Source: Gemmatimonadota bacterium
GTDB lineage: Bacteria > Latescibacterota > UBA2968 > UBA8231
DNA length: 20,674 bases
Direction: 5' to 3'
Assembly (NCBI GenBank): GCA_038128265.1
Contig: JAYPJE010000065.1
Coordinates: 1 to 20,674 of the forward strand
Part shown: piece by piece, positions 2,689 to 20,674 of the stretch
How the letters are laid out: every line of letters begins with the position of its first letter
Position numbering within the stretch: the stretch's first letter is position 1
Notes under the pieces: generated by a model
Seen by the model: only the letters and a program-made list of their open reading frames with translations
What the model was told of the DNA's origin: nothing
Database searches by the model: none
Position numbers and translations under genes: made by a program

Positions 2689-2765
2689 AGTATTTTCCTC
2701 GTCGCGCGTGATGCGGGCAAAGATAGACAGCGGAGAGAGGCGTTTCAAGGAATGAGAACAAATAT

Positions 2766-4175: not shown

Positions 4176-5305
4176 ATCTTGTTTTTCTCGATGTAGTCCC
4201 AGTTGATGTTCATACCCAGGCCGGGGCGCTGCGGCACGTGGACAAAGCCCTGCTCGTCCATCGGTTCACCGTGCTCGTGTAGGTAGGGTGCCGGTTCGTC
4301 AAAGTCGATAAAGGGGTGCAGCAGGCCGCGCTCGTAGAACTCGCCGTTGTGCATGGCGCAGAGCGCGTGCAGGTTGCCGGGGCCGCCGCCGTGGATCTCG
4401 CAGCGCATGCCGAACGACTCGCACAGGTGCACCGTCTTCATCAGCGGCGTCAGGCCGCCGACGTCGCCGACGCCGCAGCGGCTGATATCGCAGGCGCCCG
4501 CTTTAATCCACTCGGCGCGCACGTACATCTTGCCCTCGCAGGTTTCCGGACCGCAGATGGGCAGACTAGTCTGCTCGCACAGCCAGATATAGGACGACAT
4601 GCTGTGCTCGTCCATCGGTTCTTCCATCCAATAGTAGTCCAGCTTTTCCAGCCCTTTGGCCAGGTAGAGCGCCGCTTCGCGATCGTAGTAGTGGTAGGGA
4701 TCCAGCATGAGCGGCACGTCGGGACCAACGGCCTCGCGCACGGCGGCGCAGGCTTCGATATCGCGCTTGGGATTGGGCGCGCCTTCGTAGGGCGGCTGCC
4801 AGGTGTGCAGCTTAAAGGCGGGGTAGCCGCGCTTCATGCACCATTCGGCAAAGCGCGCGTAGTCTTCCGGCGTAGCCAATCCGCCCTCGAGGTCGTCGCC
4901 GCACATGGTCGAGGCATAGGCCGGTACCTTGTCGCGAAAACCGCCGAGCAGTTTGTAGACCGGCGTATTGAGCGCGCGACCGGCCAGGTCCCACAGCGCC
5001 AGATCGACGGACATGATCACCTTGTCCGACATGGTGCCCATATTGAGGCGCTGGCGGTGGTTGAGGTCGCGCCAGATCTTCTCGCGGTCAAAGGGGTCTT
5101 CGCCGACGATGGCTGGTTTGACGACGCTTTCGATTACCTGCGCGTTAGTGCCAAACCAATAGCCGCAGACGTCTTCGTCGGTGGCGATCTTGAGCAGCGT
5201 TTGCGCGACTTCGCGCTCGGGCCCTGGGTGCCCGTGTCCATCTGTGTCGCGCATCGTGCGCGAAATCGTCTTAAAGCGAATAACTTCTACGTCGGTAATT
5301 TTCAT
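4172..5305 (-). CDS. Mandelate racemase/muconate lactonizing enzyme (enolase superfamily) protein, probable acid-sugar dehydratase-like, 377 aa
   Basis: MKITDVEVI start, VGEDPFDREKIW, SVDLALWDLAGRALNTPVYKLLGG, VPAYAS. Metal ligands in MLDP, WMEEP and GPE. Also EIHG and VPQRPGLG. Strong SD (GAAGGAG). Confidence 0.92.
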   Translation of the reverse strand: MKITDVEVIRFKTISRTMRDTDGHGHPGPEREVAQTLLKIATDEDVCGYWFGTNAQVIESVVKPAIVGEDPFDREKIWRDLNHRQRLNMGTMSDKVIMSVDLALWDLAGRALNTPVYKLLGGFRDKVPAYASTMCGDDLEGGLATPEDYARFAEWCMKRGYPAFKLHTWQPPYEGAPNPKRDIEACAAVREAVGPDVPLMLDPYHYYDREAALYLAKGLEKLDYYWMEEPMDEHSMSSYIWLCEQTSLPICGPETCEGKMYVRAEWIKAGACDISRCGVGDVGGLTPLMKTVHLCESFGMRCEIHGGGPGNLHALCAMHNGEFYERGLLHPFIDFDEPAPYLHEHGEPMDEQGFVHVPQRPGLGMNINWDYIEKNKI

Positions 5306-5453
5306 AGATGTCCCCCCTCTCCTTCGATAAAGCGTTCACGCATGGAAGGTGCTCAATATATCGTATTGCGGCCAGCGATCCAAGTGCCAACGCGGCGTTG
5401 GCGTGCGCGCTGCGATTGATATATCCTATGCTCTCGCATGCATTGATCCGTTG

Positions 5454-5465
5454 CAGAACGTTCTG
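5454..5465. promoter_or_regulatory. Perfect 12-bp palindrome, candidate operator
   Basis: CAGAACGTTCTG, 18 nt upstream of the ROK start, in the divergent enolase/ROK intergenic region. Confidence 0.3.
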
Positions 5466-5483
5466 TTAGTGGGACAAAAGACC

Positions 5484-6443
5484 GTGAAAAAAGAGCCGCT
5501 CATTTTGGCCATCGACATAGGTGGCACGCAGTTCAGTCTGGCGTTGGCCCATAGCGATGGGCGCGTTGTGCGGCGCAAGGTGGGCGCTACCAATCGCGCC
5601 GAGGGTGCGTGCTGGATGGTTGAGCAAATTATAGACGCTGCCGGCCAGCTAGTCGAAGGGGCAGGTACGACCGTTGGCGCCTGCGGCATCGGCTTTGGCG
5701 GACCGGTCGACTTTGCCGCACAGCGCATTCTATCCTCTACGCACGTAGCGGGCTGGGAGGGGGTTGCGCTGCCAGCGCTGATAGAGGACGCCCTGGGCGT
5801 GCCCGCCGTGGTGGAAAACGACGCCAACGTCGGCGGATTGGGCGAATATGCTTTTGGTGCCGGACGCGGAGCGCGCGCGCTGGTCTACTATACGATTAGC
5901 ACGGGTATTGGCGGCGGCGTGATCGTCGATGGGGCGATCTACCGGGGCGGCGACGGCAACGCCGGCGAATTGGGGCACTGTCCCGTCGTGCTGGATGGCC
6001 CGCTGTGCGACTGCGGCAACCGCGGATGCCTCGAGGCGCTGTGCTCGGGCAAGTCGATCGCGCGCCGGGCGCACGAGGCGGCCGCGGCCCATCCGCGCCG
6101 CGCACGGATGCTGCGTCGCCTGGCAGCGGATGGCGAGATTACGGCGCGCGTTGTATTTGCCGCCGCACGGGCCGGCGACGGCTTAGCGCGGGAATTGGTC
6201 GAAGAGACGTGTACGTATCTGGGCATGAGCATGGCCAGCGCGATGAACGTGCTGGCGCCGGAAGTGATCGTTGTAGGAGGGGGTGTGAGCAAAGCGGGGC
6301 GCGGGCTCTTGGTGCCGCTGGTAGCACAGGCGCAGCGCTTCCTCATGCCCGTGCACCGGCCGCATCTGCATATTCGCCTGGCGCGCTTTCCAAGCCGCTC
6401 GGTGATTATGGGCGCTATCGCCCTCGGGCGCGGATTGCTCTAG
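5484..6443 (+). CDS. ROK family sugar kinase (glucokinase-like), about 319 aa
   Basis: AIDIGGT, GIGFGGPVD, ENDAN, STGIGGG, GELGH and Zn motif CDCGNRGCLE. No N-terminal HTH, so a kinase rather than a repressor. GTG start at 5484 was chosen by family length; exact start uncertain. Confidence 0.9.
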   Translation: MKKEPLILAIDIGGTQFSLALAHSDGRVVRRKVGATNRAEGACWMVEQIIDAAGQLVEGAGTTVGACGIGFGGPVDFAAQRILSSTHVAGWEGVALPALIEDALGVPAVVENDANVGGLGEYAFGAGRGARALVYYTISTGIGGGVIVDGAIYRGGDGNAGELGHCPVVLDGPLCDCGNRGCLEALCSGKSIARRAHEAAAAHPRRARMLRRLAADGEITARVVFAAARAGDGLARELVEETCTYLGMSMASAMNVLAPEVIVVGGGVSKAGRGLLVPLVAQAQRFLMPVHRPHLHIRLARFPSRSVIMGAIALGRGLL

Positions 6444-7282
6444 TCGCTCGCTGCGTCGGACAGACCCAGCAGCGCCCTTGCCTCGTCGCAGGTAGCCACC
6501 TCGCGCTGCAGCTCGCGCGCCAGGCGCACGGTGCGCTCGACAAACTGCGCGTTGCTGTCGGCCTTTACGCCGCGCGATAGGTAGACGTTGTCCTCAAAGC
6601 CGACGCGCACGTGCCCGCCCATCAGCAGGGCGTGGGTGGTGATGGGTAGCTGCAGCGGACCGGGTGCCAGCACCGACCACTGCGCACCGGCCGGCAGGCG
6701 ATCGCTCATATCGACCAGCGCGCGCAGCGTGCCTTCAATGCCCCAGCGAATCCCCAGACACAGCTGAATCCACGGTGGATCGGCGACGAGCCCGCGCTCA
6801 ATCAGGTCGTTGGCCTGGCGCAGATGGCCCAGGTCAAAGACTTCGATTTCGGGCTTAGTGCCGGCCTCGCGCATGCGCTGTGCGGCGCGATCGACCCACT
6901 CGGCCGCGTTGATAAAGACGCGGTCGCGAAAGTTGAGCGAGCCGACGTCGAGCGAGCTCAGGTCGGGATGGAGCGTTAGCGGATCGCGCCGGCGTTCGTC
7001 GGCAGCGGGTCCAGTGATATTAAATCCGCTGGTGGTCAGATTGATCAGCAGGTCGCTCTCAGCGCGGATGCGCTCGACGACTTCGGCAAAGAGCTCCACG
7101 CGCGAGTCGGGGGCGCCGGTCTGCGGATCGCGCACGTGAATATGGGCGATGGCTGCGCCGGCCCGCCAAGCACCGAGCGCCTGCTCGGCGATGTCTTCTG
7201 GCGTATAGGGCACATTAGGGTTTTGCTCTTTGGTCGGCGCCGAACCGCAGACGGCGGCGGAAATAATGAGTTTGTCGCTCAT
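6440..7282 (-). CDS. Beta-keto acid cleavage enzyme (BKACE, DUF849; 3-keto-5-aminohexanoate cleavage enzyme family), 280 aa
   Basis: KLIISAAVCG, NPNVPYTPEDIA, AGAAIAHIHVRD (Zn-binding HxH), SLDVGSLNF, KPEIEVFDLGHL and GGHVRVGFEDN. ATG at 7282 lies 11 nt after the upstream stop. Confidence 0.92.
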   Translation of the reverse strand: MSDKLIISAAVCGSAPTKEQNPNVPYTPEDIAEQALGAWRAGAAIAHIHVRDPQTGAPDSRVELFAEVVERIRAESDLLINLTTSGFNITGPAADERRRDPLTLHPDLSSLDVGSLNFRDRVFINAAEWVDRAAQRMREAGTKPEIEVFDLGHLRQANDLIERGLVADPPWIQLCLGIRWGIEGTLRALVDMSDRLPAGAQWSVLAPGPLQLPITTHALLMGGHVRVGFEDNVYLSRGVKADSNAQFVERTVRLARELQREVATCDEARALLGLSDAASD

Positions 7283-7293
7283 GCACACACCCG

Positions 7294-9279
7294 TCAGAAC
7301 ACGATGCTCGAAACGGCCTTGGAGATCAGCGCCAGTGCAATCGACGACATGCCGACCAGGCCCATGCCGCACGAATAGCCGGCCAGGAGAATGGGCGTGT
7401 AAGAGCGCCACGTCTGCTCGCCAAAGCGCCGTTCGAAATAGTAGCGGCCCAGTAAGGCGCCGATAAAGTTGGGCAGCACGAAGTGCGGCCAGGCGCTGAC
7501 GCCGCCAATAAACCCGTAAAACACCGCAATCGGCCACTTGAGCAGCGACAGCAGGCCGAGCATGGCACCGCTGGAGGCCACGCCGACGAGGATGTAGTCT
7601 AGGCGAATAATGCTACGTATGAGCTCGTTGCCGCCTTCGGCCAGCGTCGACTTGGCCCAGAAGGCCTGCATGGTGGCGTGGAAGGGCCAGAACTTCTGCA
7701 CGTAGGGAAAGGCCGACGAGGGAATGGGGCCGAGCTTCCAGATAAAAGACCAGAAGATAAAGGAGCACACGAACATGATGAGCAGCGTGACGGCAGCCAG
7801 TTTGACGATGCTGCCGAAGCGCGTGCGCGTTAGCTCTAATTGCTTGAAGGCGGCCGCCTCATAGCCCCAGTTAAAGAGGGGAATGGGCGCGAACCACACG
7901 GCGGCGCCCTGATAACCCGATAGGTAGAACGAACCTTCGCGCAGGTAGGGAAAGGACACGCCCTGCGGCGAGCCGGTCAGGCCGATCATGCGCGCGCCGA
8001 TGTAGGAATAGATCGGCGTCCATACAAAGCCGAAGAATGCGCTGATCCACCAGGGGAAGTTCGGCACGAGAAAGTAGACGAGAGCGATAAAGCCGGCCGT
8101 GCTAACGGCCCAGATACCCAGCGCTACCGGAATGGGAATATCGCCGCGATCTTTCGGTATGTCGCTGTCGCCCTCGCGCTGGGCACCGCGCAGGTTCCAC
8201 ATCGTGCGGCCGACCATTGCAAAGCCCATTACGGCCACGACAACGGCTCCGCCGATGGTAAAGCTGAGCCAGAAGTCAAAGTTATTGGCTATTTGCGTGG
8301 GGATGGCCGACATGCCAGGCTCCCAGGTGTGCAGGACATCTATGCTGTATAGGATCGGGTTGACCAGTACATTGACGAGGATGGACGCGGCAAACGAACC
8401 GACGACAATCCAGAAGGGCAGCACAAAGCCGATCAGTACGTTGCCCAAATCGGTGCCGATGCCCATGATCCCGGCCGGCAGCAGCTCCTTCATCGAAACG
8501 GTCAGGTCGATAAAGGGAATGGGCAGAATGGTGACGGTCTGGGTGAGAAAAATGCCGGAAACGGTGGGTATGACGACGTAGAACAGGCCCCAGAGAATGC
8601 CAATAAAGGCGCCGATGCTGAAGACTTCCCAGCGCCATCCCTCGCGCGCGCCGGAGCTCTCGGCCAGCGCGGTGGCGCCGCCGGCCTGCACCGATGCCAA
8701 GGGGTAGGGCAGCTTCTCGATATCGTTGGTTATGCGGAAGAGCACGTAGCCCAGCGATAGGCTGTTGATCTTCTGCATGACGATTACGGTGAGCAGGAGA
8801 ACGATCGGTTTGATCCAGTCGGCGTGTAAAAAAGAGCGGCCGCTTAGCGCGGGTGAGTCGCGCGGCGGCACGACCCAGTCGGGAATATACTGGTGAAGGC
8901 CATCGGCCTGGGGCGATTGAATCAGGTACTGGTCCCAGATCAGACCGCCAAAGGGGCCGCCGAAGAGGTCGGCGCCGGTGCCGAGTTTACCGCCCATCGT
9001 GACCAGTCCACCGGCCACCCAATAGAGAATGATGACTTCCTGCGGGCGCAAGCGCACAAAAGAGCGCTTGGCTATTTCTATAAAGAGGATCAGCGTTACC
9101 CACTCGGCGCCGCCAGCCATCGACTGGCCGGTCACTAGGCCGAGATAGATGGCACCCGGCAGCATGACAAAGCCGACAAAGAGCGCCGCCCACAGCGTTT
9201 TGATATTAAAGCCGGGCTCGAACTGCAGATTGTCTGGGATCAGGCGGATATCCGCGTCGCTTGATTTCTCTTGTGCCAT
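7294..9279 (-). CDS. Polytopic membrane protein, distant OPT/YSL (oligopeptide transporter) superfamily-like, 661 aa
   Basis: Hydrophobic throughout, with more than a dozen TM-like segments. Contains IEKLPYPLASVQAGGA (resembling the OPT e.Lp[FY]P.g.a.a motif), YIGARMIGLTG and C-terminal PILLAGYSCG. Confidence 0.7.
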   Translation of the reverse strand: MAQEKSSDADIRLIPDNLQFEPGFNIKTLWAALFVGFVMLPGAIYLGLVTGQSMAGGAEWVTLILFIEIAKRSFVRLRPQEVIILYWVAGGLVTMGGKLGTGADLFGGPFGGLIWDQYLIQSPQADGLHQYIPDWVVPPRDSPALSGRSFLHADWIKPIVLLLTVIVMQKINSLSLGYVLFRITNDIEKLPYPLASVQAGGATALAESSGAREGWRWEVFSIGAFIGILWGLFYVVIPTVSGIFLTQTVTILPIPFIDLTVSMKELLPAGIMGIGTDLGNVLIGFVLPFWIVVGSFAASILVNVLVNPILYSIDVLHTWEPGMSAIPTQIANNFDFWLSFTIGGAVVVAVMGFAMVGRTMWNLRGAQREGDSDIPKDRGDIPIPVALGIWAVSTAGFIALVYFLVPNFPWWISAFFGFVWTPIYSYIGARMIGLTGSPQGVSFPYLREGSFYLSGYQGAAVWFAPIPLFNWGYEAAAFKQLELTRTRFGSIVKLAAVTLLIMFVCSFIFWSFIWKLGPIPSSAFPYVQKFWPFHATMQAFWAKSTLAEGGNELIRSIIRLDYILVGVASSGAMLGLLSLLKWPIAVFYGFIGGVSAWPHFVLPNFIGALLGRYYFERRFGEQTWRSYTPILLAGYSCGMGLVGMSSIALALISKAVSSIVF

Positions 9280-9286
9280 AGAAGCG

Positions 9287-11206
9287 CTAGTTGCCGTAGA
9301 GCGAGTGGCCCTGGCCCGGGAAAAAGGCCATGTCGATTAGGAACGAAAAGCCAATGGCGGTGAAATAGCCCATGATTAGGCCAATGAAAAAGGGCTGCGC
9401 CTTTTGGTAGAGTCCGATGCCACCTGACCGCATAATGGCCCACTTGGCCAGCCAGGAGACGAAAATCGAAAAGACGATAATGGTCATTGGGTACGAGCAG
9501 ACGCCGACGGGCATACCGATGGGATGCAAGGGCCACCACGGGAAGCGATAGCGCATAAAGGTCAGCGCACCCATGATGCTACCACCGATGCCCAGGTGCA
9601 TTAGCCGCGTCCAGTCGGGTGCAGTGAGGGCAATTTTGCGCAGGCTTTCGGCGTAGGGGACTTTCGAACCGTCGCCGAAGATCCAGCCGCCGTAGTTAAA
9701 AGCGCCAAAGGAATAGCCCATATACAGGATGAAGGCCATGGAAACGACGAGGGCGACAAGGGCGGCGGCCATCACGCAGAAGGTGATGGTGCGGCGACTC
9801 AGCTGCATGTGGTCGCTTATTTTGGCGCTGTTGGCTGAGGCGACCATAAAAAAGCCCTTGAGCTCGTGGTGCCACCCGTAGGAAAGGCCGAGCGCAATAT
9901 TGCTCTCGGGGCCGGCGTAGGGTCCCAGCGTATAGCCGACAAAGGTCTGGCCGACCAGCGGCGCGCGCGAGAAGAGCAGGCCCCCTTCCATTACGATGCG
10001 CGTAATGCCGGTGTAGAGAATGAGCGTGGCGAGAATAAAGAGAATGAGCGTGGGGATCGACATACCGGCCCGATACATCCAAAAGGCGATGTAGAGCAGC
10101 GAAAGACCGCCGCCAAAGACAATGCCGCGGTAGGACATTAGCTCGTTGCTGTCGTCGATCGCATCGTCGCCGCGAATGGCTTTGCGCCAGATATCGCCGA
10201 GGTGTCCGCGCGCCATCCAAATCATATTGGCCACTAGCACAATCATCGCGCCGAAGGACTGCCAGCCGATGGCTGGATGGCCGCCCAGCGTGTAGATGTC
10301 GAGTCCGGGCAGCGAGTAGCCAAAGCGGTTGAAGGTGCCGATTTGCAGCATGGTCAGCACGTTAAAGAACCACAGGCTAAAGGATACGTCGAGGTTGACG
10401 AAGTAGGTGAAGCCGACGATGGCCCAGTTGATATTGGTGTTGATAGCCGGAAAATCGCGGCCGATGCGAATGGGATCGGACAGGTCGCGCGGTATCGGTG
10501 GAAAAGCCGGCGTGAAGTAGGTGACGACGTTCCACATAACCATGAAAAACGGAATGGCGAAGCCAATCCAAAAGGCGGGTTTGCGCACAAAGCCGGGCCA
10601 GTTGGAACCGGGCGGTGGTTCGATGAGCTGGCGCGGCACTTCCATCAGCGCGTAGGGCAGGCGCTCGTGCTCGACCCACTGTTTGCGCAGTGCGGCCACC
10701 ATGCAGTGGCAGAGAAAGAAGATGGCGATGACCAGGCTGGTCCACCAGAACAGCGGGGCAATCCACGCGCCCCACGGAATCGACTCGCCGGCGGGAATGC
10801 CGTTGTAGAACCACTTGAGGGCAATGTCGTCGCGCGGCATCAGCCAGTCCTTGGCGTACTGCACGACCTTGTCCTGCCACTGGTTTTCCGGCGAGGCGAA
10901 GAACTTGGGCGCGGCGATAACGGCGATCATATAGGTCGACGTGCCCCAGGTGGGAATGGAGGCGCCGACCAGCGACATGATAAAGACGATCCCGAGCTCG
11001 CTCGGCGAGAGGCCGGCAATGCGCAGGGCCGATTTGAGCGCGGCGTTGGCAAAGACGAGCGCGGTAAAGAGAAAGACTACGCTCAGCGGCAGGTAGCTAA
11101 TGGCCCACTGCGACGATTTCAGCACGAACATGCTGTAGGGCGCACCGACGTTGATTAGCGCGACCATAAAGAGGCCAATGAGGAAGGCGCGCAGCGGAAA
11201 TATCAT
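9287..11206 (-). CDS. Polytopic membrane protein of DUF6785/DUF6784 type, 639 aa
   Basis: LRAFLIGL start, ELGIVF, WFYNG, IPWGAWIAPLFWW, LRKQWVEHERLPYAL, RYRFPWWPLHPIG and KWAIMRSGGIGLYQKAQPFFIGLIMG, as recalled for this family. ATGA overlap with the upstream stop. Confidence 0.75.
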   Translation of the reverse strand: MIFPLRAFLIGLFMVALINVGAPYSMFVLKSSQWAISYLPLSVVFLFTALVFANAALKSALRIAGLSPSELGIVFIMSLVGASIPTWGTSTYMIAVIAAPKFFASPENQWQDKVVQYAKDWLMPRDDIALKWFYNGIPAGESIPWGAWIAPLFWWTSLVIAIFFLCHCMVAALRKQWVEHERLPYALMEVPRQLIEPPPGSNWPGFVRKPAFWIGFAIPFFMVMWNVVTYFTPAFPPIPRDLSDPIRIGRDFPAINTNINWAIVGFTYFVNLDVSFSLWFFNVLTMLQIGTFNRFGYSLPGLDIYTLGGHPAIGWQSFGAMIVLVANMIWMARGHLGDIWRKAIRGDDAIDDSNELMSYRGIVFGGGLSLLYIAFWMYRAGMSIPTLILFILATLILYTGITRIVMEGGLLFSRAPLVGQTFVGYTLGPYAGPESNIALGLSYGWHHELKGFFMVASANSAKISDHMQLSRRTITFCVMAAALVALVVSMAFILYMGYSFGAFNYGGWIFGDGSKVPYAESLRKIALTAPDWTRLMHLGIGGSIMGALTFMRYRFPWWPLHPIGMPVGVCSYPMTIIVFSIFVSWLAKWAIMRSGGIGLYQKAQPFFIGLIMGYFTAIGFSFLIDMAFFPGQGHSLYGN

Positions 11207-14200
11207 GCCGACACCTCGGCCCGATTAAAGGCGCCGTCGACTCGGCTCTGATAGTCTTGGCGAATGCCTGCTGGCAGCGTGCGCCAAACTAGGAAGCGCT
11301 TGCGCAGCACGTTGAGAAAATTGCGGTTCATGCGCTGCCACGAGGCCACATCGCCGCTGAGTCGATTGATCTGCACTTCGATTTTGTATATGTGGTGCTC
11401 GCCGGTGGGAATGGCGTGCAGCGTCACGTCCTGACTGATGCCCAGATCGTAGGGGGCCAGCCACGCCCGCATGGCGATGGCGTAGGCCGTGCCGTCTGGC
11501 GTCTGCGTCGAATGGAGCTCGACATCGCGGGCGATAAAGTCGCCAACGGAACCCTCGCCGTAGGCGTCGAAGACCGTCTTCAGATAGACGTACATGCTCG
11601 GCACTTCGGCGCCCCCTACCGTAAAGGGAAAGTCAAAGCGCCAGTCGTCGCCCTGCGGCGGTGGAAAGCGCCACTGTCGCGTTACGTCGGGCACGGCCAT
11701 ATTGGCCGCTAGCCGGGCCGGATAGAGCGTCGAGACGTAGACCGTGAGGATGACGATGAGCGTGGCCCAGACAGCCGACAGCGACGAGTAGTTGAGCGTC
11801 AGGCCGCTGAGCAGTTCGTACTGCACGATAAATAGGTAGGACACCTGGCCGAGCAGGTAGCCAGCGACGGCGCCAAAGGTCGCAAAGACGGTCGACTCGG
11901 CGATAAAGAGCATGCCGATATGGCTCGGTGCCAGGCCGACAACGCTGTAGACGCCAATTTCTCGCGCGCGCTCGTAGACGGCCCCCGTCATTGTATTGAC
12001 GACGATAAGAGCGGCGATCAGCACGGGAATAAAGAGCTGGCCGGCGCCGCTTATCTCCGTAGAGCCGATGGAGCTATAGACGACGACGCGGTCCTTCTGG
12101 CTGACAAAGAGCGTCAGCGCCACGCGCGTCATAAATGATTCGACGCGCTCAACAAAGGCGTCGGTGGTTCCAGGCGGCGCCGCAATGGCGATCGAGCGCA
12201 GCTGGCCTTCCATCTCTAAGACGATCTCGTAGGGCAAGAACAGCGAATTTTCTGGAGCCAAATGGCTGAAGCTCTCCAGCGGGGCCGAGGCCTTGGTGCG
12301 CGGATCTTCGGTCGCCTCGCGCGCGATCAGACCGGCGTCGGTCACCGTGTCGACCGGCGTTAGCTCTTCGCCGTCGAGATCGCGCAGCGCAGCCAGGCGT
12401 TCGGAGTCGAACAGGCCAATCACGGTGTAGTCCTGGGCAAATAGGCGCACCTGTGCGGTGCCGACGTCTTCGGGGCCGATGCCGAGCAGGTCGCCTAGCT
12501 TGTCAGGCAGGAGCACGACGTCGCGCTCGTCGGCGGCAAAGAAGCGTCCGGCCGACAGGTATTGGTCGATGCCGGTGACGCGCGGTTCGTCTGCGTGCAG
12601 GCCAACGATGCCGTGCACAAAGCTGCTCCTGCCCCGATCGGGCGCATCGATATCAATAAAGGCTTTTTCAGACTGCACCTGCGACAGATACCAGGCGCGC
12701 GGCACGACCAGCGCATCGGAGGCAAAGGCGCTGCGCACGTAGTCTAGCGTCGACAGCTGCATGCCGCGCCAGGCCCGCTCGCGTACCAGCGCGCCCTCGT
12801 ACTGCGGTTTGGTATCGCGCGGCAGGCGGTAAAAGTCGAGGCTCGATTTTACGGAGGTAAACGACGATACCGTAAAGGTCAGTAGGGTGAGCGTAATCGC
12901 CGTTAGCGCAGTGCGCAGGCGGCGCTTGCTGAGGTTGGAGATGCCGAGTAGGATGGCGGCAAAGCCGGCACTGACGCGCCCGACATCCGTTTCGTGCATG
13001 CCGGCGGCCGCCCCTTTGCGCTTTTGCAGCATCTCCTTGAAGCGGCCGATGACGATGAAAACGACGAGCAGGCCAAGCGCCAAAATAACAAAGGCTAGGA
13101 AGATGATGTAGGGCGACGTGCTGAGCTTGAAAGCGGGGTGCAGCCAGCGCAGCACGAGAAAAATGCCGACGAAAATGCCGGCAAAGGCGACGATCTGCTT
13201 GCGAATTTGCGGATAGCCAAAAAAGAAGCGCTCGCAGAAAAACGAGAAGGGCAGGATGAGCGCAAAATAGAATATGACCGCGCGCACCGTGTCGTTGGCC
13301 GTCGACTTAACTTCCGGATAGATGCGCGCTTCGACGCCCAAGGCGCGGCGCACGGCGCTCTTGTATTCGGTGTAGTTGAGGTTGGCCAAATGGCGCTCGG
13401 CTTCGAGCAGCGCGGATTTGGCGCGCGCGTGCATGAGCTGCAGCTCTTCGACGATAATGCCGTGGCGCTCCAACTGTTTAATGCGTGCTTCGTCGATAAT
13501 CCACATGTCGCGCGCCGCCTGTAGCGACGGATGGAAAAGCACGTTTTGTGCCGGATCGAAGCCGCGTCCCTGCGCGCGCTCAATAACGCCGAGGTCGACG
13601 GTAGATGGATCGAGCGGCTGCTGTAGGAAGGACTCGTCGGCGTTGGTCAGCATGAAGCGCACGCCGGCCAGCGCGCTTTCGCCGCCAAAGGCGCCTTCGC
13701 CGGCGAGGATCTTAACGCGGCTATCCGGCTCGGCAAAGACGACGCCGGCTTGCACCACGCGATCGGCGCGGCCCGACTGATTTTCTATGTAGCTAAAACC
13801 AAAAGAGCGCGGTGGCGCGTCGTTGCTGCCAAGCACGTTGATGCGGTCCATCGCGGATAGGTAGCGCGGATCGACCACCTCCAAAAAGCTGAGCGCCTCG
13901 CACTTGAACAGCACCTGCATCATGCGGTTTTCCCACCATCCGTAGGGCTGCATGCCGGGGTAGGTTTTATCGCCCTCTTCGCCCAGGTCAGGCGCTGAGA
14001 CAATGCGGCCGTCGCCGTCTAGTTCAAAGGCTTGGATGCGGTTTGAAAAGCGGTTGCGCACGATGTCAAAGCGGAAAAAACCCGCCGAGTCGCCCTCGCT
14101 GCGCGCGCGTGCCGTAATAAGGGTGCGCACGCCGGCAATCGAATTGGGACCAGGCTGTAAATACGTGACGAGCGCATCGGCTACCGGCGCTTTGGGCACG

Positions 14201-15822
14201 GCGAAGTTTACGTCGCGGTCAAACCAGTAAATGTAGCCTTCTAAGCTGTGCCCCCAGTCGCGCAGCGAGAGCTTGGTATCGTTGAAAAACTCGGGATCGG
14301 CGGCGGCCTTGAGCAGCAGGGCCGCTACCGTGCGCGCCTGTTCCTGCAGGCCGTCAAAGTCCATGAACTCGATGCGGTCCAGCGGCGTGTCGGCCAGCGG
14401 CCGCAGCTGGTTGGGCGTCACCAGTGAGATGGCCTCTTTGCCGACGAAGACGGCGGCCTCGCTGTCGAGGGCCAGGCGCACGGGCATGTAGTTTTTCCAG
14501 ATGCGCTTAACGGGCGCTACGGCGTCGATATAGCGATCTGCGTTGGAGAAGACCTCGGCGCTGTAGTCGGCAAAGTGCTGCGAGTAGGGCGCCATCAAAT
14601 TTTTGAGATAGTCGTTGTTGCCCCAGTTCGAATTGTAGAACGTGCCCATGGCAAAGCTGGCGACCTGCTCGCTGTGCGAGCTAAGATCGAGTCCGATAAA
14701 AAGTCGGAAATCAATCTCAGCGTCCTCTGCAATGCGCTCGCGAAAGTAGGTGCTCTTGCGCGCGTGGCGGGCGAGAAAATCATTGATGCCGGCCAGACCC
14801 TGAAAGTGGCCTGGCGTGGCGAGGAAGAGCACGGTGTAGCGCGTGCCGTGCTCTTTGAGCAGGCGCGCCGTCTCCAGGAGGGTGGCTATGCCGCTAGCGC
14901 TTTCGGCGCCCGGTGCCAGCGCCGGAACGACCGACATTGCATCGTAGTGCGCCTGCACGACGAGCACCTGGTCCTTCCACTTTTGCACCTGCTGGCGCTG
15001 GCCGCGCGGCATATCTTCGTCGAGGCCGGGGAGGATGGCGTATATATTGCGCGCGGTCGCCTGCTCCCAGTCCATTCGCGCTTCGAGATGCACCTGCGTG
15101 CGGCCGTTTTCGATCTGGGAACGCAGAGCCTGCGCCTCTTCGCTGGCCATCCAAAAGCGTGGAATATCGACGGGCACCTGCAGAAACTTTTCCGCGGCCT
15201 CGCCGCGCGTAACGCGGCCATCGTCGTAAAAAATAATGGCGCGTGCGCCCAGGGCGCGGACTTCGACATAGTTGTTGCCCGAGCCAAAGGCCATCAGGGC
15301 AATGCTGCCCGTCACCTGCTGGCCATCCAATTCGGCGAGCGTGCCGCGACCGGCGTCGATCAGGTGGCCGTCAATGCCGCCGGAGGGCAGCGTCGATGTG
15401 CGCACGCCGTTGGGCCAGAGCGCATGCAGTGCATAGTGCTGGCCAGAGGGCAGGCGCAGATGGGCCCCCTTGTCCATTGGGACCGGCAGCTCAAAGTGTT
15501 CCGAGGTGATGTCTTGGAGGCCGATTTGGCGAAACTGGTCTTCAATATAGCGTGCGGCAGCCGCGGCGCCCGGGTAGCCCGTTACGCGCGAAGGGTGAGT
15601 GCTGAGGGCCTCAATATGAGCACGTAGGTCGTCGGCGCTCAGGCGCTGCACGACGTCAAATACGTCGGGATCGCTGACGTTGGTTACCGTTTCGCTGAGC
15701 GGTTTCCAGCCAATCGCCTCTTCCATACGGGAAGAGAGACGCTCGGGGTTTATTACCGTTACCGACAGGAGAAAGAGTGCGGCAATGGCGATGAGAACGG
15801 CGCGTTTAATTGGCATAGGCAT
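11203..15822 (-). CDS. Large fusion: N-terminal anchor, PA domain, M28 peptidase-like domain, beta-sandwich/helical linker, extra TMs and MacB/FtsX-type ABC permease, about 1540 aa
   Basis: M28-like: LRAHIEALS..SRVTGYPG..AARYI, NIYAILPG and VQAHYD..APGA. PA: GHLIDAGRG..GSIALM..LGARAIIF. MacB/FtsX: NLSKRRLRTALT, GRFF, YTVIG and NTMTGAVYERAREIGVYSVVG..FIAE. Start uncertain (ATG 15816 or 15822, or GTG 15849). Confidence 0.85.
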   Translation of the reverse strand: MPMPIKRAVLIAIAALFLLSVTVINPERLSSRMEEAIGWKPLSETVTNVSDPDVFDVVQRLSADDLRAHIEALSTHPSRVTGYPGAAAAARYIEDQFRQIGLQDITSEHFELPVPMDKGAHLRLPSGQHYALHALWPNGVRTSTLPSGGIDGHLIDAGRGTLAELDGQQVTGSIALMAFGSGNNYVEVRALGARAIIFYDDGRVTRGEAAEKFLQVPVDIPRFWMASEEAQALRSQIENGRTQVHLEARMDWEQATARNIYAILPGLDEDMPRGQRQQVQKWKDQVLVVQAHYDAMSVVPALAPGAESASGIATLLETARLLKEHGTRYTVLFLATPGHFQGLAGINDFLARHARKSTYFRERIAEDAEIDFRLFIGLDLSSHSEQVASFAMGTFYNSNWGNNDYLKNLMAPYSQHFADYSAEVFSNADRYIDAVAPVKRIWKNYMPVRLALDSEAAVFVGKEAISLVTPNQLRPLADTPLDRIEFMDFDGLQEQARTVAALLLKAAADPEFFNDTKLSLRDWGHSLEGYIYWFDRDVNFAVPKAPVADALVTYLQPGPNSIAGVRTLITARARSEGDSAGFFRFDIVRNRFSNRIQAFELDGDGRIVSAPDLGEEGDKTYPGMQPYGWWENRMMQVLFKCEALSFLEVVDPRYLSAMDRINVLGSNDAPPRSFGFSYIENQSGRADRVVQAGVVFAEPDSRVKILAGEGAFGGESALAGVRFMLTNADESFLQQPLDPSTVDLGVIERAQGRGFDPAQNVLFHPSLQAARDMWIIDEARIKQLERHGIIVEELQLMHARAKSALLEAERHLANLNYTEYKSAVRRALGVEARIYPEVKSTANDTVRAVIFYFALILPFSFFCERFFFGYPQIRKQIVAFAGIFVGIFLVLRWLHPAFKLSTSPYIIFLAFVILALGLLVVFIVIGRFKEMLQKRKGAAAGMHETDVGRVSAGFAAILLGISNLSKRRLRTALTAITLTLLTFTVSSFTSVKSSLDFYRLPRDTKPQYEGALVRERAWRGMQLSTLDYVRSAFASDALVVPRAWYLSQVQSEKAFIDIDAPDRGRSSFVHGIVGLHADEPRVTGIDQYLSAGRFFAADERDVVLLPDKLGDLLGIGPEDVGTAQVRLFAQDYTVIGLFDSERLAALRDLDGEELTPVDTVTDAGLIAREATEDPRTKASAPLESFSHLAPENSLFLPYEIVLEMEGQLRSIAIAAPPGTTDAFVERVESFMTRVALTLFVSQKDRVVVYSSIGSTEISGAGQLFIPVLIAALIVVNTMTGAVYERAREIGVYSVVGLAPSHIGMLFIAESTVFATFGAVAGYLLGQVSYLFIVQYELLSGLTLNYSSLSAVWATLIVILTVYVSTLYPARLAANMAVPDVTRQWRFPPPQGDDWRFDFPFTVGGAEVPSMYVYLKTVFDAYGEGSVGDFIARDVELHSTQTPDGTAYAIAMRAWLAPYDLGISQDVTLHAIPTGEHHIYKIEVQINRLSGDVASWQRMNRNFLNVLRKRFLVWRTLPAGIRQDYQSRVDGAFNRAEVSA

Positions 15823-15919
15823 GCGCTGTGTGCGCTGTGAACGCGGCACACGGCGCCAAAAATAGGAGCGGCGTGAAGAGTCTGTCCCTACAGTTTATGT
15901 AGGAGCGCTGGTGCGGCGA

Positions 15920-16690
15920 CTAGTTGGCCGCCAACTCGCTGAGGTTCTTGACCTTTTTCAGCTCGCGCTGAAAGCGAAATGCGAGGTCTATTTCCTCGAC
16001 GGGCTCGTTGCGGTAGTTGTAGCGCAGGCCAAAGTCAGGTATGTGGAATACGATCGACCCAACGTCGTTGTGAATTTTTGAAAAAATCACGTAGCCTTCG
16101 ACGTCCTGGCCAGAAAAGCAAAACTCATCGTCGGGATATTTGGATTGATTGACGATATCGCGGCGCTCGTCAAAGCGCAGATAGCCCAATCCGTTGAACG
16201 CTAGGGGAAAGCGGCGATAGTATTCTTCGACGTCGTAGGCTCCCCATGGAAAGTACTTGCGTCCATTTGTTGACTCGATGACGATTTTGAGCGGGTCGAG
16301 TTTTACTTTCGGATATTCGTAGTTCTTGACGGTGATTTTAAATACGGATAGGCGCTGTGGTGGTTCGCCCGTTTTGGGATCGACCCAGTTTCCATAGGTA
16401 AAAGGGGTCGAGGGCATCTCGTCGCCGGGACCGCTGGCATCGCTCGACTGCGCGGGGTACTGACGATTGAGCTCCTCGTCGGTCATGGGACGCACGGAGA
16501 CTTCCAGGCGATTTTGGACAAAGGTGACGGTGCCGTCATCGAGCACCTGCATCTGGGTCCCTTCGCCACTCTGCTGCTGGGCCACCTCAGCGGGTTCGAA
16601 TTTTCCGGGGACCACATAATGCCCACATCCAGCGACCAGCAGTAGGGACAGTGACCAACCGAGTCCGAGTGCCATTTTAAGCGTGCGCAT
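15920..16690 (-). CDS. Hypothetical lipoprotein, 256 aa
   Basis: ATG at 16690 with SD GAGGAG. Signal MRTLK + hydrophobic stretch + lipobox VAG-C. The mature part is beta-rich (VFKITVKN, VEGYVIF), suggesting an Ig-like sandwich. Confidence 0.8.
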   Translation of the reverse strand: MRTLKMALGLGWSLSLLLVAGCGHYVVPGKFEPAEVAQQQSGEGTQMQVLDDGTVTFVQNRLEVSVRPMTDEELNRQYPAQSSDASGPGDEMPSTPFTYGNWVDPKTGEPPQRLSVFKITVKNYEYPKVKLDPLKIVIESTNGRKYFPWGAYDVEEYYRRFPLAFNGLGYLRFDERRDIVNQSKYPDDEFCFSGQDVEGYVIFSKIHNDVGSIVFHIPDFGLRYNYRNEPVEEIDLAFRFQRELKKVKNLSELAAN

Positions 16691-16715
16691 TGGAGATCTC
16701 CTCTCAGTGCCTTGT

Positions 16716-18056
16716 TCACATGTCAATCGGGGATGTGCTCTGCCGCTGGCGAGCGACGAACTCCCGAAAATTATCTTCTTCCATCTGCACCTGATCCGCT
16801 GACTGCTGGCGCAGATTCTCTATGAATACCTCGAATATGGGGGCGGCTTTGGCCTCGCGAAGATCGCGGCCAACCTGAATGCTCAGCGTCTGAGCATTGT
16901 TGGCTATCGGCGCGTAGCGCTCCCTGTTCTGCTCGTAAAATGCGCGCAGTTCATTCTCATCAATGCGCACCTGCGAGTAAATATCGCTTTCCCACATAGA
17001 CTCGAGAATTTTTTGCTGCAGCACCTTTTCTCGATCTTCCACAAGTGCTTCGTACAGGCCCTTGCTGCGCGCTTCTTCGGCTAAGATTTTCTCGGCTACA
17101 TACGCCCGGGTGACGCGAAACCCCAGCTCCGTTGTCGTTGTCGCAGGGGCTGAGTCGGCCTGCTGCAAGCGCTGTATAGTTTGCTGATACTCGGCCAGCG
17201 TCCATTCGCCGACATCGCTCTTGAGCAGGCGCAAGTCGGGGGATGCGCCACCGGAAAGGACCTGCGCCAGTGCCGCCGTATCGATTTGCACGGCGTGGCG
17301 CTCGGCCAGACGTGCGAGAAAATTGATATTGGCATCCTGCTGACGCTGTCGGCGCAGCGTGCGCTCGACGAGTTCCCGGCGCTGTTCCAGCGGCACCTGA
17401 CGCTTGTCTGCCACCTGCACTAGGAGGTAGCGGTCTTCCGCTTCAATGAGTTCTACAGCGCCTTTCTCCAACAGAAAGAGCGGCGCGTAGCGCGCATCAA
17501 CCATGAGTGGGTTGAGCCAGTCCGTGGCCATGGGACGCATCGAATAGCGCGTGGAAAGCTCACCAAAATCCATTCCTCCGCGCAGTTTTTCTAGTAGCTC
17601 AAGCGCCTTTTGCCGCTCTTCCACGTCGACGCGCTGCAGGCGAATTTCGCTGCCGGCGCTCGTCTCTTCGTAGAACGAACGGAGTCCTTCTTCCGTCCAG
17701 GATAGGTCGTCACCCATCTCCAGTTCGATTAGCTTGGACACCAGGCGATTGCGCTCCCACGCCTGCACGGCGTTTTGCACGCTGGCCTCTTCATGCAGGT
17801 TGCGTCGTCGCGCCTCCTTCATCATCAGCTCGCGGTCGATAACCAGCTGAAACTGCTGGCGCCACTGTTCGAGCGTAAGGGCCTGTGCATCGCTTCCGAG
17901 CCGCTGCAGCACCTCGCTGAAATCGCGTTCTGTTATTTCTCGCTCACCGACCCGTGCGAGGACGGGATCGGCGGGTGTAGACGGCGTCTCTTCCTGCGCA
18001 CACGAAGCCAGGAAAAACCCGCAGAGTAGGACGCCGAACGGCCGTTTAAATAGCAA
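16716..18056 (-). CDS. SurA/PrsA-like chaperone lipoprotein with degenerate parvulin (PpiC) domain, 446 aa
   Basis: Lipobox LAS-C; VLARVGEREITERDF; LVIDRELMMKEARRRNL; ALELLEKLRGGMDFGELSTRYS; second SurA-N-like unit ILAEEARSKGL...IDENELRAFYEQN. TTG start 3 nt after the upstream stop. Confidence 0.75.
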   Translation of the reverse strand: MLFKRPFGVLLCGFFLASCAQEETPSTPADPVLARVGEREITERDFSEVLQRLGSDAQALTLEQWRQQFQLVIDRELMMKEARRRNLHEEASVQNAVQAWERNRLVSKLIELEMGDDLSWTEEGLRSFYEETSAGSEIRLQRVDVEERQKALELLEKLRGGMDFGELSTRYSMRPMATDWLNPLMVDARYAPLFLLEKGAVELIEAEDRYLLVQVADKRQVPLEQRRELVERTLRRQRQQDANINFLARLAERHAVQIDTAALAQVLSGGASPDLRLLKSDVGEWTLAEYQQTIQRLQQADSAPATTTTELGFRVTRAYVAEKILAEEARSKGLYEALVEDREKVLQQKILESMWESDIYSQVRIDENELRAFYEQNRERYAPIANNAQTLSIQVGRDLREAKAAPIFEVFIENLRQQSADQVQMEEDNFREFVARQRQSTSPIDM

Positions 18057-18059
18057 TGG

Positions 18060-20674
18060 CTAAAATCCCCACCCTCTTCGCTCCGCCGGGCGACCGCCGA
18101 GGCGTTCCTGCTCTATACCGGCAAAAAGCTCGATAAAGGCAATGGTGTTGCTCACATCGAGATCCTTTAGGTTGCCGTAGTTAATGTCGTTCACCTGAAA
18201 ACCGATGTTAGAGGTTATGCTGTACCCCTGATACTGCACTCGATTGGTATACTGCGCAGTGAAGACCTTGCCGACAAAGTCGTCGACGTATTCGGGCGGC
18301 AGCGGATCGGGAATGCGTTCGGCGTTGCGGAATATAATGGTTTCAACGCCTACCTCGACGCGGCTTTTGGTCAGGACCGGAAACACGGCCGAGATCGAAA
18401 AAATTTCGCTCAGGTCATTGATCTCTAACAGGGCGGGACGCGGCTGCGTGCGGCGGCGCCACATGCTCTTCCAGCGCGGAATCAGCGTGACGTTGCCAAT
18501 GGGAAACGGATAGTCGGCCTTGTTTATGACGCCGATAAAGGCGCTGTCGTCAAAGTTGCTGCCCGCCTCCGCATTTTCGGCGCGCTGCTTGTAGTGGTCG
18601 ACGCGGAGCTTGTTGACGAACGTCAAATTGCCGCGCGTGTACTTGTAGCCGAGATAGCCCTGGTTGACCATGGCATCTTGGGTAATTTGCGGATCGTCAA
18701 AGGGCTGCAGGCCGCCAACGGAACCCGGCCGCTGCACCCACTGCAGCAGATTATCGGGAATGTTATCCTTAACCAATTTGATCATATAGAATGCTTCTAC
18801 GCGGCCAATGCGCGCCATATCCTGCTCCGAGCTGAGCAAGAGGAAGCTCATTTTTGCGCGCTCGTCGCCGGCGATGAGCCATTCACGGCTGCGGCCAACC
18901 GTCATATTGACGCCCGGGTATATTTCGGCACCGGCGTACATGTTGTAGCCGCGATGGCCGCGCTTGTAGGGATAATCGGCCTCTTCGTCGTTTTCAAAGC
19001 GGTCGACTATTGTATTGTTGTTCATATCGACGCCAAAGAGAAACTCCGGCGGATCGACGTAGTGGCGCAGAAAGGGCTCTTCGTAGTCCGGCGTCAGATT
19101 GCTGTTCTCGTTGAAGTCGGAGATTAGGTCATTGTTTTCGTCGAGGCCGGGAAATACGGCGTTGTCACCGCCGCCACCGCCAAAGCGCGGCCAGTCGACG
19201 GCCTGGTCTTGGTCGTCGTTATCGTCGATGTACTCAAACCAGTTCTGGCGCTGGTTCTCGTAGTCGACAAAGTCGTTTTGGTCGGTGATATAACCGCGCG
19301 TGGTGTAGTCGTGGTCCATGCTGAACGCTTCGCTATAGCCGAAGTAGCGACCGGAGCGCTTGGTGGCGTTGATAAACCAAGCATCGGCCTGCTGGTCACT
19401 CAGCGTCAGGTTACTCAGCTTTTGCACGTTGATATTGGGATAGCGCTGGTACTGCGCGTTGCGCGCGAACTCGCCGCGCACTTCCATGCCCCATACGTCT
19501 TCGATCTGTAGATCAATGCTGGCGATCTGGTTGGCTGAGGGCAGGCCGTAATCAAAGCGCACGACGCGCTGGTTTGTGTTGTCGCGGACATTGCCTTCGG
19601 CGCGCACGACCGGCAAGAAGATCGGCTGGCCGTTGATATTTGTTTGCAGATTGGACGTTACTTCGACGCGGTAGTCGTTCGACAGCACCATGGCAAAGCT
19701 AACTTTGCGCACGACCAGCGGATCGGGCACGCGGTAGCGCAGCAGAATGGGCGCCTCTTCCAGCGCTTCGAGAAAGCCTTCGCGCTCGCGTCCACCCTCA
19801 ATAGTTGGGTTGACGGACGTCGGTTCGCCGTCGACGATCATCTCGGATGAGAAAAAGAGCGCACCCGAGCCGTCGCCGGGCGAGTCGTCGACGATGCGCA
19901 CGACGATTTCGGTTACGTTGCCCGAGTTTTGGCTGCTAGTCAGGAGGCCCTTACGCGAATTTTCGGAGAAGTTGCTGGAGCTCGAACCAAAGTTGGTGTT
20001 GACCAACGTCGCGCCCAAGTTGATAAAGTCGCCGACCTGGGCCGTTCCACGCAGGCCCATGAAGTTGGTGTAGTCGGTGTCCTGAACGCGATTGGAGCCC
20101 TGCACGACGCGAACGGGCTCGCTGACGCGCGAGAGCAACACCGTTGCGCCGTACTTGTCGGACTGGAAGTCCCACTGAATGCCGTTAAAGCGCGAGCGGC
20201 TAAACGTCAGCGGCGTCAGCGTAGTGCGGATGGCGTCGCCGATGGTAAGCGAAGTGAAATACTGCCCCTTGGCATCGGAGGCAACGACTAGGTTTTGAAA
20301 CCAGCTGGAGAACCGGCTGTCTTTGAAGACGGTGCTGCCAAAAGCCAGCGGCTGCTGCTGGCGCCACTCGTAAATGCGCCAGCCGCGGGTGACCCAGTTG
20401 CCGAAGATATCGTACTGGCCTAGACCTTCCAACTGCGTGCTGACATAGCGCTCATACGGCTCTTTGGCGTAGTTGGTGTACTTATAACCACCCCAGTCGT
20501 AGATGTTGTAGAGGTCCTGTGGCACGTACCACTTGCGCAAGGTGGGAATGAGCGGGTCAAACCCTTCGATTCTCACTTGCGACGTGGCGCCGCGCTCTCG
20601 TCCCGGCGTTGCCGCGATCGCGGCGGATAGCGTCCCAGCCAGTAGAAGCAGGGCGATCCCCCAAGACGTAACTC
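18060..20674 (-). CDS. Large secreted, probable outer-membrane protein (>870 aa; start lies beyond the window end)
   Basis: The frame stays open upstream of the GTG at 20576 to the window edge and reads VTSWGIALLLLAGTLSAAIAA, a signal peptide. Many amphipathic beta-strand-like segments, an Asp/Asn-rich central insert, and C-terminal Phe (GWGF). Confidence 0.75.
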   Translation of the reverse strand, partial: VTSWGIALLLLAGTLSAAIAATPGRERGATSQVRIEGFDPLIPTLRKWYVPQDLYNIYDWGGYKYTNYAKEPYERYVSTQLEGLGQYDIFGNWVTRGWRIYEWRQQQPLAFGSTVFKDSRFSSWFQNLVVASDAKGQYFTSLTIGDAIRTTLTPLTFSRSRFNGIQWDFQSDKYGATVLLSRVSEPVRVVQGSNRVQDTDYTNFMGLRGTAQVGDFINLGATLVNTNFGSSSSNFSENSRKGLLTSSQNSGNVTEIVVRIVDDSPGDGSGALFFSSEMIVDGEPTSVNPTIEGGREREGFLEALEEAPILLRYRVPDPLVVRKVSFAMVLSNDYRVEVTSNLQTNINGQPIFLPVVRAEGNVRDNTNQRVVRFDYGLPSANQIASIDLQIEDVWGMEVRGEFARNAQYQRYPNINVQKLSNLTLSDQQADAWFINATKRSGRYFGYSEAFSMDHDYTTRGYITDQNDFVDYENQRQNWFEYIDDNDDQDQAVDWPRFGGGGGDNAVFPGLDENNDLISDFNENSNLTPDYEEPFLRHYVDPPEFLFGVDMNNNTIVDRFENDEEADYPYKRGHRGYNMYAGAEIYPGVNMTVGRSREWLIAGDERAKMSFLLLSSEQDMARIGRVEAFYMIKLVKDNIPDNLLQWVQRPGSVGGLQPFDDPQITQDAMVNQGYLGYKYTRGNLTFVNKLRVDHYKQRAENAEAGSNFDDSAFIGVINKADYPFPIGNVTLIPRWKSMWRRRTQPRPALLEINDLSEIFSISAVFPVLTKSRVEVGVETIIFRNAERIPDPLPPEYVDDFVGKVFTAQYTNRVQYQGYSITSNIGFQVNDINYGNLKDLDVSNTIAFIELFAGIEQERLGGRPAERRGWGF

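Follow-up and report, generated by a model that had tools for sequence, protein, structure and literature searches.

Analysis of the window, that is the entire contig JAYPJE010000065.1 (C65; 20,674 nucleotides (nt)) of a Gemmatimonadota bacterium placed by GTDB in the Latescibacterota (genome of 4.29 Mb, 84% complete), revealed a run of seven co-oriented minus-strand open reading frames (ORFs) coding for a large outer-membrane beta-barrel, a chaperone lipoprotein, a second lipoprotein, a very large inner-membrane protein (the giant), two permeases (M1 and M2) and a beta-keto acid cleavage enzyme (BKACE). The operon consists of two separately evolving modules, both undescribed in the literature searched, module A (barrel, chaperone and lipoprotein) and module B (giant, M1 and M2), which meet at a conserved and recurring junction. 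The coordinates of all features are given in Table 1.

The intergenic gaps, read from barrel to BKACE, were 3, 25, 97, -4 (ATGA), 7 and 11 nt, and the 97-nt gap between lipoprotein and giant becomes 70 or 103 nt if neighbouring starts are used. The gene run and the spacing given in an earlier sequence-only reading of this DNA, which took the seven genes for one machine, were borne out by the ORF coordinates. The barrel ORF (18060-20672) is open at the contig end, where this first gene is truncated; the end of contig C24 overlaps the minus-strand start of the window (20647-20674) by exactly 28 nt and provides the barrel ATG, and C24 and C65 are very probably adjacent in the genome. Co-oriented genes of 594, 780, 608 and 301 amino acids (aa) and then of 796 aa lie upstream of the barrel on C24, and with the overlap they make the unit longer than seven genes. 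This continuation contains three genes for surface proteins bearing the C-terminal tail described below and the gene for the 301-aa secreted protein; upstream of its barrel a close relative has a gene that shares 90% identity with the 594-aa one. No match was obtained in the Rfam search, and the scans for promoters (4 vs 5.6 in shuffles) and terminators (21 vs 16.0 in shuffles) stayed at chance level. The named relatives were mostly Candidatus Latescibacterota or labelled Gemmatimonadota; the GTDB scan had at least 592 matches, of which the best 80 came mostly from Latescibacterota/Gemmatimonadota, with Planctomycetota and one Nitrospirota besides.

Table 1. Features of the window, with positions counted from its first nucleotide.
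Feature	Position	Strand	Basis
Large outer-membrane beta-barrel, unnamed family	18060..20674	-	870 aa in the window, 873 aa with the C24 start
SurA/PrsA-like parvulin-type chaperone, lipoprotein, 446 aa	16716..18056	-	profile searches
Lipoprotein, unnamed family, 256 aa	15920..16690	-	conserved lipobox, co-occurrence with barrel
Giant, 1539 aa	11203..15822	-	Pfam, PDB profile matches, model of residues 500-1539
PA + M28-fold head of the giant, residues ~57-500	14323..15654	-	remodelled site, profile alignments
MacB-type protomer in the giant, residues ~951-1378	11689..12972	-	transmembrane helix (TM) 1, periplasmic domain, TM2-4, coupling-helix region
Permease M1, DUF6785 + DUF6784, 639 aa	9287..11206	-	Pfam, 380 and 87 bits
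Permease M2, OPT-like, 661 aa	7294..9279	-	weak Pfam OPT matches, Atlas clusters
BKACE, 280 aa	6440..7282	-	Pfam BKACE, 337 bits, positions 1-274 of 274
PhyH-HEAT repeat fusion	1249-2790		
GPH-family MFS symporter	2766-4175		
Enolase-superfamily dehydratase	4172-5305		
ROK kinase, convergent with BKACE	5349-6443		

The distribution of the genes indicated that the two modules dissociate both ways. The barrel was detected in 30 of 61 genomes. All eight genomes of family f10 carried barrel and lipoprotein and no core of module B; the barrel was absent from families f2 (0/22), f4 (0/6) and f8 (0/3), where the small permease of module B described below (mini-FtsX) was present throughout and where giant and M2 were found in all five genomes tested. 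Eight genomes had module A without B and at least five had B without A; therefore neither module needs the other, and the single machine of seven genes that had been proposed was not supported.

The same modules are nevertheless linked in one lineage. This was seen in a quick tree of 77 M2 rows (76 different), with SH-aLRT as the sole support and loci extending some 10 kb from the giant. A clade with support 99 comprises 26 rows, and in 24 of them the chaperone or the lipoprotein gene lies beside the core, in two gene orders, vs none of the 51 rows outside it. Neither a duplication nor a reversed gene order has broken the link. It recurs in another family, where a distant giant (only 34% identical) stands after ExbD-ExbD-x-lipoprotein and before M1, and a third family has an M1 gene flanked by a tail-bearing gene on one side and a barrel gene on the other. 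The claim that the outer-membrane genes are linked to the giant was thereby supported, and gene order was conserved beyond chance in this one clade only. Barrel genes near the core at two further loci (L098 and L101) follow a 727-aa gene of no relation and were taken to be neighbours by chance.

The model of the barrel (pLDDT 81.8, pTM 0.80) has some 22-24 long strands and, besides Asp-rich loops, a beta domain inserted into it; about 55 residues precede the first strand. No Pfam or NCBIfam family, PF11751 included, matched the protein, and the fold search returned generic barrels only (best Z 13.4, root mean square deviation (rmsd) 4.7, 228 aligned), with TonB-dependent transporters at Z ~10, level with porins; judged by this model, the barrel is without a close solved relative. 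Among named Atlas clusters DUF6029 comes nearest (0.89), which serves as a lead and no more. The genome holds 24 copies of the family. Residues ~421-541 of the 838-aa frame (window 18953-19316) are rich in Asp and Asn with many invariant Asp, a stretch that resembles calcium-binding loops.

The profile of the chaperone (16 members) matched SurA (E 2e-27) and PrsA (E 4e-26), in agreement with the parvulin domain and flanking helical chaperone regions that mark this family; the single-sequence Pfam matches were under the cut-off; the protein is a SurA/PrsA-like chaperone of the parvulin type by profile and a putative peptidyl-prolyl isomerase. Its lipobox Cys19 is almost invariant in the alignment. 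The Gly-Cys lipobox of the second lipoprotein is invariant (16/16), all nine of its paralogues lie at most 10 kb from a barrel gene vs a background of 6%, and presence of lipoprotein and of barrel agreed in 34 of 34 genomes. Five of its 16 sequences gave weak matches to DUF4352 (best E 0.034), and its profile matched nothing in the PDB.

Module A goes with surface proteins carrying a tail like that of a type IX secretion system (T9SS). Of 23 barrel genes, 16 have a tail-bearing gene directly upstream, compared with 101 of 3234 for genes overall, and the best tail-profile E-value was at most 4.1e-17 in all 30 barrel-positive genomes and at least 1.2e-16 in all 31 barrel-negative ones, both results being partly circular since the profile was built on barrel neighbours. 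Independently of that profile, Pfam CHU_C or FlgD matched 26 of 45 barrel neighbours, many of them with F5/8 domains. In loci of other genomes, 11 of 13 genes upstream of barrels were tail-bearing. The motif TPNxDxxND is conserved across 34 tails, and the orthologous cargos score 25-37 bits with Pfam CHU_C (cut-off 27). About 100 FlgD-type matches were counted in the genome.

A SprA_N match over the cut-off was located in a 2163-aa frame on C26 (L162:5742-12200; gene of 2152 aa), among 34 genomes of the phylum 33 have SprA-like matches, and the present genome has three PorV-like genes. The search of this 84%-complete genome for GldN gave no match and was uninformative since its controls were silent too, GldN being the one component of GldKLMN searched for; the PorP_SprF search likewise gave no match, with uninformative controls. 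A SprA-like gene without a GldN match hints at a T9SS-like translocon with a different motor. Two barrel clusters (L016:13759-18665 on C7; L157/L158 on C35) include a TPR protein of ~1090 aa and ExbB, and the cluster on C7 additionally ExbD-ExbD, which suggests a proton-driven motor for some copies.

Pfam searches with the giant revealed M28 (45.5 bits, cut-off 21.3), FtsX and, below the cut-off, PA. In order, the protein contains a signal anchor, a PA + pseudo-M28 head, a transthyretin-like beta domain, further beta structure and a helical stalk, after which come three helices in the membrane, the MacB-type protomer in complete form and, on the cytoplasmic side, a KA1/START-like domain at the C-terminus. 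The fold was taken from a predicted model of residues 500-1539 (pLDDT 84.8), in which the matches of the small domains at Z ~8 indicate common fold only. The family is large; matched with the N-terminal 941 residues at E values up to 1e-30, it fills 981 clusters formed at 50% identity.

Fold searches with the protomer returned YtrF (Z 16.1, rmsd 18.6, 339 aligned), FtsX (Z 14.2, rmsd 4.3, 172 aligned), MacB and LolCDE, and profile alignment to MacB ran across both halves. The coupling-helix region, ERxxEI..G..P, aligned to MacB and YtrF, and its residues E1284, R1285, E1288, G1296, P1299 and E1309 are conserved in 76-79 of 79 relatives. The source that defines type VII ATP-binding cassette (ABC) proteins, or mechanotransducers (PMC5985334), provides the features found in the giant, namely a four-helix transmembrane domain with a periplasmic domain between TM1 and TM2 and a coupling helix between TM2 and TM3.

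Alignment of the head with the aminopeptidases 2ek8 and 6hc6 revealed that the EE pair of the enzymes (GAEE) falls on His-Phe (PGHF). Across 79 relatives H339 is kept in 78, and Glu is not among the five commonest residues at 339-340. The terminal His (YHTP) aligns to D478, present in 65/79, in a low-scoring alignment, and the first-His column (292) holds Tyr in 58/79 relatives and His in the present protein. The EE pair and the terminal His belong to the catalytic and zinc-ligand set of M28. Judged by these alignments the canonical catalytic site is absent, and for this reason binding is likelier than processing, the two periplasmic roles between which the sequence-only reading had not chosen. 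Other residues of the head are invariant (R79, S297, H339, D472, R474 and D482). The head profile matched 2ek8 (E 9e-26), nicalin (E 4e-11) and nicastrin (E 1e-3), and a specific nicastrin or nicalin ancestry was not adopted since active aminopeptidases score higher.

Planctomycetota giants reach ~3000-3100 aa (L055, L056), and two long relatives of 2769 and 2930 aa (P0123, P0125) carry extra Big_5 Ig-like domains; some M2 proteins have an insertion of 150-300 aa, one with Reg_prop repeats. The outer parts of the proteins therefore vary modularly. At one locus (L142; G030:C2:736575-745586), in a genome with seven giant and two M2 matches, two tandem giant genes precede one M2.

Comparison of the two permeases by hhalign (probability 95, E 2.9e-8, 567 columns) indicated that M1 and M2 are distant full-length homologues. 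Pfam OPT was found on two of 31 M2 relatives (best E 7e-7) and on neither M1 nor M2 of the window, and the Atlas clusters at 0.97-0.98 to M2 have OPT on 15-33% of members, their labels including Lentisphaerota, Armatimonadota and Thermoproteota; it is on these cluster labels that a presence in archaea is based. These comparisons agree with the earlier assignment of both permeases as OPT-like, which we keep as a predicted likeness. Matches of M2 to armadillo-repeat structures in the PDB were a 25-residue artefact and were rejected. M2 was present in 41 of 41 related genomes. The genome contains 20 free M1 paralogues and one fused to a giant in a single 2118-aa ORF on C13, and the same fusion makes up a cluster of 2120-aa proteins with 56 members. 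Around 13 of the 20 free M1 genes, 24 of 46 neighbours code for small-molecule catabolic or redox enzymes, a count made without genome-wide control.

The window contains no ATPase gene according to the ORF list and Pfam, and candidates for the motor were located elsewhere. In six of 85 giant loci, giant and M2 are followed in the operon by genes for a PqqD-like protein, mini-FtsX (214-228 aa at these loci) and a LolD/MacB-type ATPase, some with an unnamed protein of ~330 aa whose profile matched no Pfam family and no PDB entry. The complete operon was also present in three further genomes of the phylum (1.8-3.1 Mb), preceded in two by M1 and a TPR gene. The present genome carries its mini-FtsX and ATPase on C44 and, on C4, the genes for the PqqD-like and 330-aa proteins. 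The C44 ATPase, which stands behind mini-FtsX, is 74% identical to an in-operon ATPase, has intact Walker A and LSGGQ motifs and resembles the LolD, YbbA and MacB models most closely. Mini-FtsX (214-233 aa, four helices) is single-copy in 113 of 121 genomes, and the ATPase gene follows it in 31 of 31 loci (about 24 distinct, some being duplicates). Since mini-FtsX and the ATPase are single-copy, the genome has one ATPase pair for five giants. Giant, M2 and mini-FtsX were co-present in 15 and all undetected in eight of 23 genomes, the eight being one family and hence one loss. From these sequence comparisons module B is a type VII ABC variant with a putative ATPase partnership. The part list of the sequence-only reading was thus incomplete; it had overlooked the mini-permease, the MacB/LolD-type ATPase, the PqqD-like protein (here all in trans) and the upstream tail proteins.

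The BKACE gene shows a full-length match to PF05853 with HxH and RVGxEDN motifs and remains under every NCBIfam subfamily cut-off. A true BKACE gene stands behind M2 in six of 77 loci, all in one clade (support 99), and is a recent, lineage-restricted passenger. Eleven weak BKACE matches (26-65 bits) were rejected because the profile contained an off-frame overlap with the end of M2. Several members of the group formed by the PhyH-HEAT fusion, the symporter, the dehydratase and the ROK kinase on the other side of BKACE lie again beside the operon in genomes of the same genus. Altogether, the product types hold, as seen from the barrel model, the lipobox cysteines in both lipoprotein alignments, the SurA/PrsA profile matches, the PA, M28 and FtsX domains, DUF6785 and DUF6784, and the BKACE match, and the assignment of the products to successive cell layers in the sequence-only reading was supported.

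We propose that the operon couples surface capture to ATP-driven binding and uptake at the inner membrane, with the motor encoded in trans, and that it would serve the serial uptake of a small nutrient; we consider the chances of this proposal evenly balanced. F5/8-type (carbohydrate-binding-like) proteins with a type-B-like T9SS tail would be exported, probably via the SprA-like translocon, and would dock on their large cognate barrel, and the lipoprotein and the SurA-like chaperone may assist the assembly of this surface station. The single MacB protomer of the giant would pair with the four-helix mini-FtsX and the LolD/MacB-type ATPase of C44 to form an asymmetric type VII ABC machine, the ATPase pair being presumably common to all giant paralogues of the genome. 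Driven by ATP, the movement would make the catalytically altered M28 head bind or hold a ligand in the periplasm, and transfer of this ligand across the inner membrane would fall to the attached OPT-like permeases. The series in the clade of the window would run from surface capture through barrel passage and head binding to import, and BKACE, as a late add-on, may degrade imported carbon. As to the substrate there are indirect hints, namely the F5/8 domains on the cargo and the catabolic and redox enzymes near free M1 genes. The analysis establishes the genes, the folds of the barrel and of the C-terminal half of the giant, the altered head site, and which genes are linked or co-occur; we infer all physical contacts, which way the ligand is transported, what the substrate is and the coupling in series.

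Several points weigh against this proposal. Several known type VII systems serve envelope building. The modules dissociate both ways, the trio of module A is lost in two of 17 direct orthologues, and in this genome only two of four M2 and four of 20 M1 genes lie within 10 kb of a barrel gene. None of the four C24 tail-bearing proteins tested reached TIGR04131, the M2 profile found nothing in the PDB, and the OPT membership of M1 and M2 rests on weak matches. The circularity of the tail counts, the single loss behind the core-negative genomes and the uncontrolled M1-neighbour count have to be set on the same side. Moreover, PMC5985334 describes known type VII proteins as acting outside the inner membrane, with no transport across it. 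Such action would fit a division of labour with OPT-like permeases, and this is a fit only.

An end-to-end uptake line of a new design, in which lectin-like proteins exported by the T9SS cap a new family of barrels, an ATP-driven MacB-type arm with the pseudo-peptidase head loads ligand onto an OPT-fold heterodimer and the shared ATPase pair serves interchangeable sets of giant and carrier, is a possible extension of the proposal which we hold as doubtful. Were it true, a fold of the secondary-carrier type would be gated or driven by an ABC motor.

Module B may also be read as an envelope-building or protein-handling machine of the LolCDE or nicalin/nicastrin kind, whose head would grip exported proteins or lipoproteins, for example those of module A, the OPT-like permeases and the PqqD-like protein then recycling released peptides or signalling with them. 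The nicalin and nicastrin matches with their similarly altered site, LolD and YbbA among the closest ATPase models, the retention of a complete operon in genomes of 1.8-3.1 Mb, the PqqD-like partner and the fact that chaperone and lipoprotein, not cargo, lie nearest the core all speak for this reading. We nevertheless judge it unlikely, as active aminopeptidases outscore nicalin, genomes with A and no B show that A is built without B, and free M1 paralogues lie among catabolic enzymes.

The adjacency of the modules could further be historical or merely regulatory, one ancestral rearrangement having joined systems for unrelated substrates. With 24 barrel genes and 20 free M1 genes chance neighbours come easily, the tree pattern could be one event, a gap of 97 nt separates the modules and the trio is missing from some orthologues; the persistence of the link through duplication and reversal and its recurrence with a distant giant in another family render this explanation equally improbable. 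That a single obligate importer across the envelope, free of an ATPase and ending in BKACE, is made up of these seven genes and no others, as tight co-oriented spacing, the joint presence of all seven in close relatives and the lack of an ATPase gene in the window would suggest, is largely refuted and very improbable in view of the two-way dissociation, the dedicated and co-occurring ATPase pair, the conserved coupling-helix region and the rarity of BKACE.

A type VII motor paired or fused with OPT-like carriers would extend the known role of such motors and assign a function to DUF6785/DUF6784. From the barrel family a T9SS-like export and display system is suggested outside the Bacteroidota, this genome alone having about 100 tagged proteins, and the A-B coupling is a candidate for a Latescibacterota-type capture of dilute organic substrates. 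The ATPase, mini-permease and cargo genes are now located, so that reconstitution is feasible to test. The literature search on DUF6785, on the gene combination and on a T9SS-like system in Latescibacterota, with subscription journals mostly outside its scope, returned no relevant paper, in agreement with the earlier statement that no characterised system of this composition is known; what the window adds to the two modules is their conserved and recurring coupling.

In SusCD/TonB-dependent utilisomes an outer-membrane barrel, of 22 strands and with an N-terminal plug domain in the SusC-like transporters, is accompanied by binding proteins at the surface and in some cases by ExbB/ExbD. Module A is like them by functional analogy, and differs in the short N-terminal region before the first strand and in that no SusD-like partner was seen. 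Module A is also like the T9SS, whose cargo with a type-B C-terminal domain is genetically linked to cognate PorP/SprF barrels, as in SprB-SprF and PG1035-PorP-PorE (PMC12618676; PMC9143113). Module A shares with these the link of tail-bearing secreted proteins to a cognate barrel, a CHU_C-like tail and SprA-like and PorV-like genes; its barrel, with ~870 aa and ~22-24 strands vs the 14 strands and ~33 kDa given for PorP in these sources, is not PorP. It is further unlike PorP/SprF in its private lipoprotein and chaperone, in the ExbB/ExbD and TPR protein of some clusters and in a host outside the Bacteroidota.

The head resembles both the M28 pseudo-peptidases (nicalin, nicastrin and transferrin receptor) and the active M28 aminopeptidases in its PA + M28 fold, with profile matches to all, and differs from them in the replaced EE pair and terminal His, in other invariant residues and in its fusion to a type VII permease. 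M1 and M2 are like the OPT/YSL transporters of oligopeptides and metal chelates (PF03169), which work by a proton-coupled elevator mechanism, in size, in weak Pfam OPT matches and in their language-model neighbours, and unlike them in being two diverged paralogues tied to an ABC-type giant and in having no PDB profile match. The giant itself is like the type VII ABC systems (MacAB-TolC, LolCDE, FtsEX, YtrEF, HrtBA and YbbAP) in its four-helix protomer, its periplasmic domain, its coupling-helix region and the putative LolD/YbbA/MacB-like ATPase. In contrast to these systems the protomer is part of a chain of 1539 aa that further contains a pseudo-peptidase head, three additional helices and, at the C-terminus, a cytoplasmic domain, its presumed partner is a mini-permease of 214-233 aa, as many as five giants depend in trans on a presumed ATPase pair present in one copy, and the whole is linked, sometimes fused, to OPT-like permeases and accompanied by PqqD-like and ~330-aa cytoplasmic partners.

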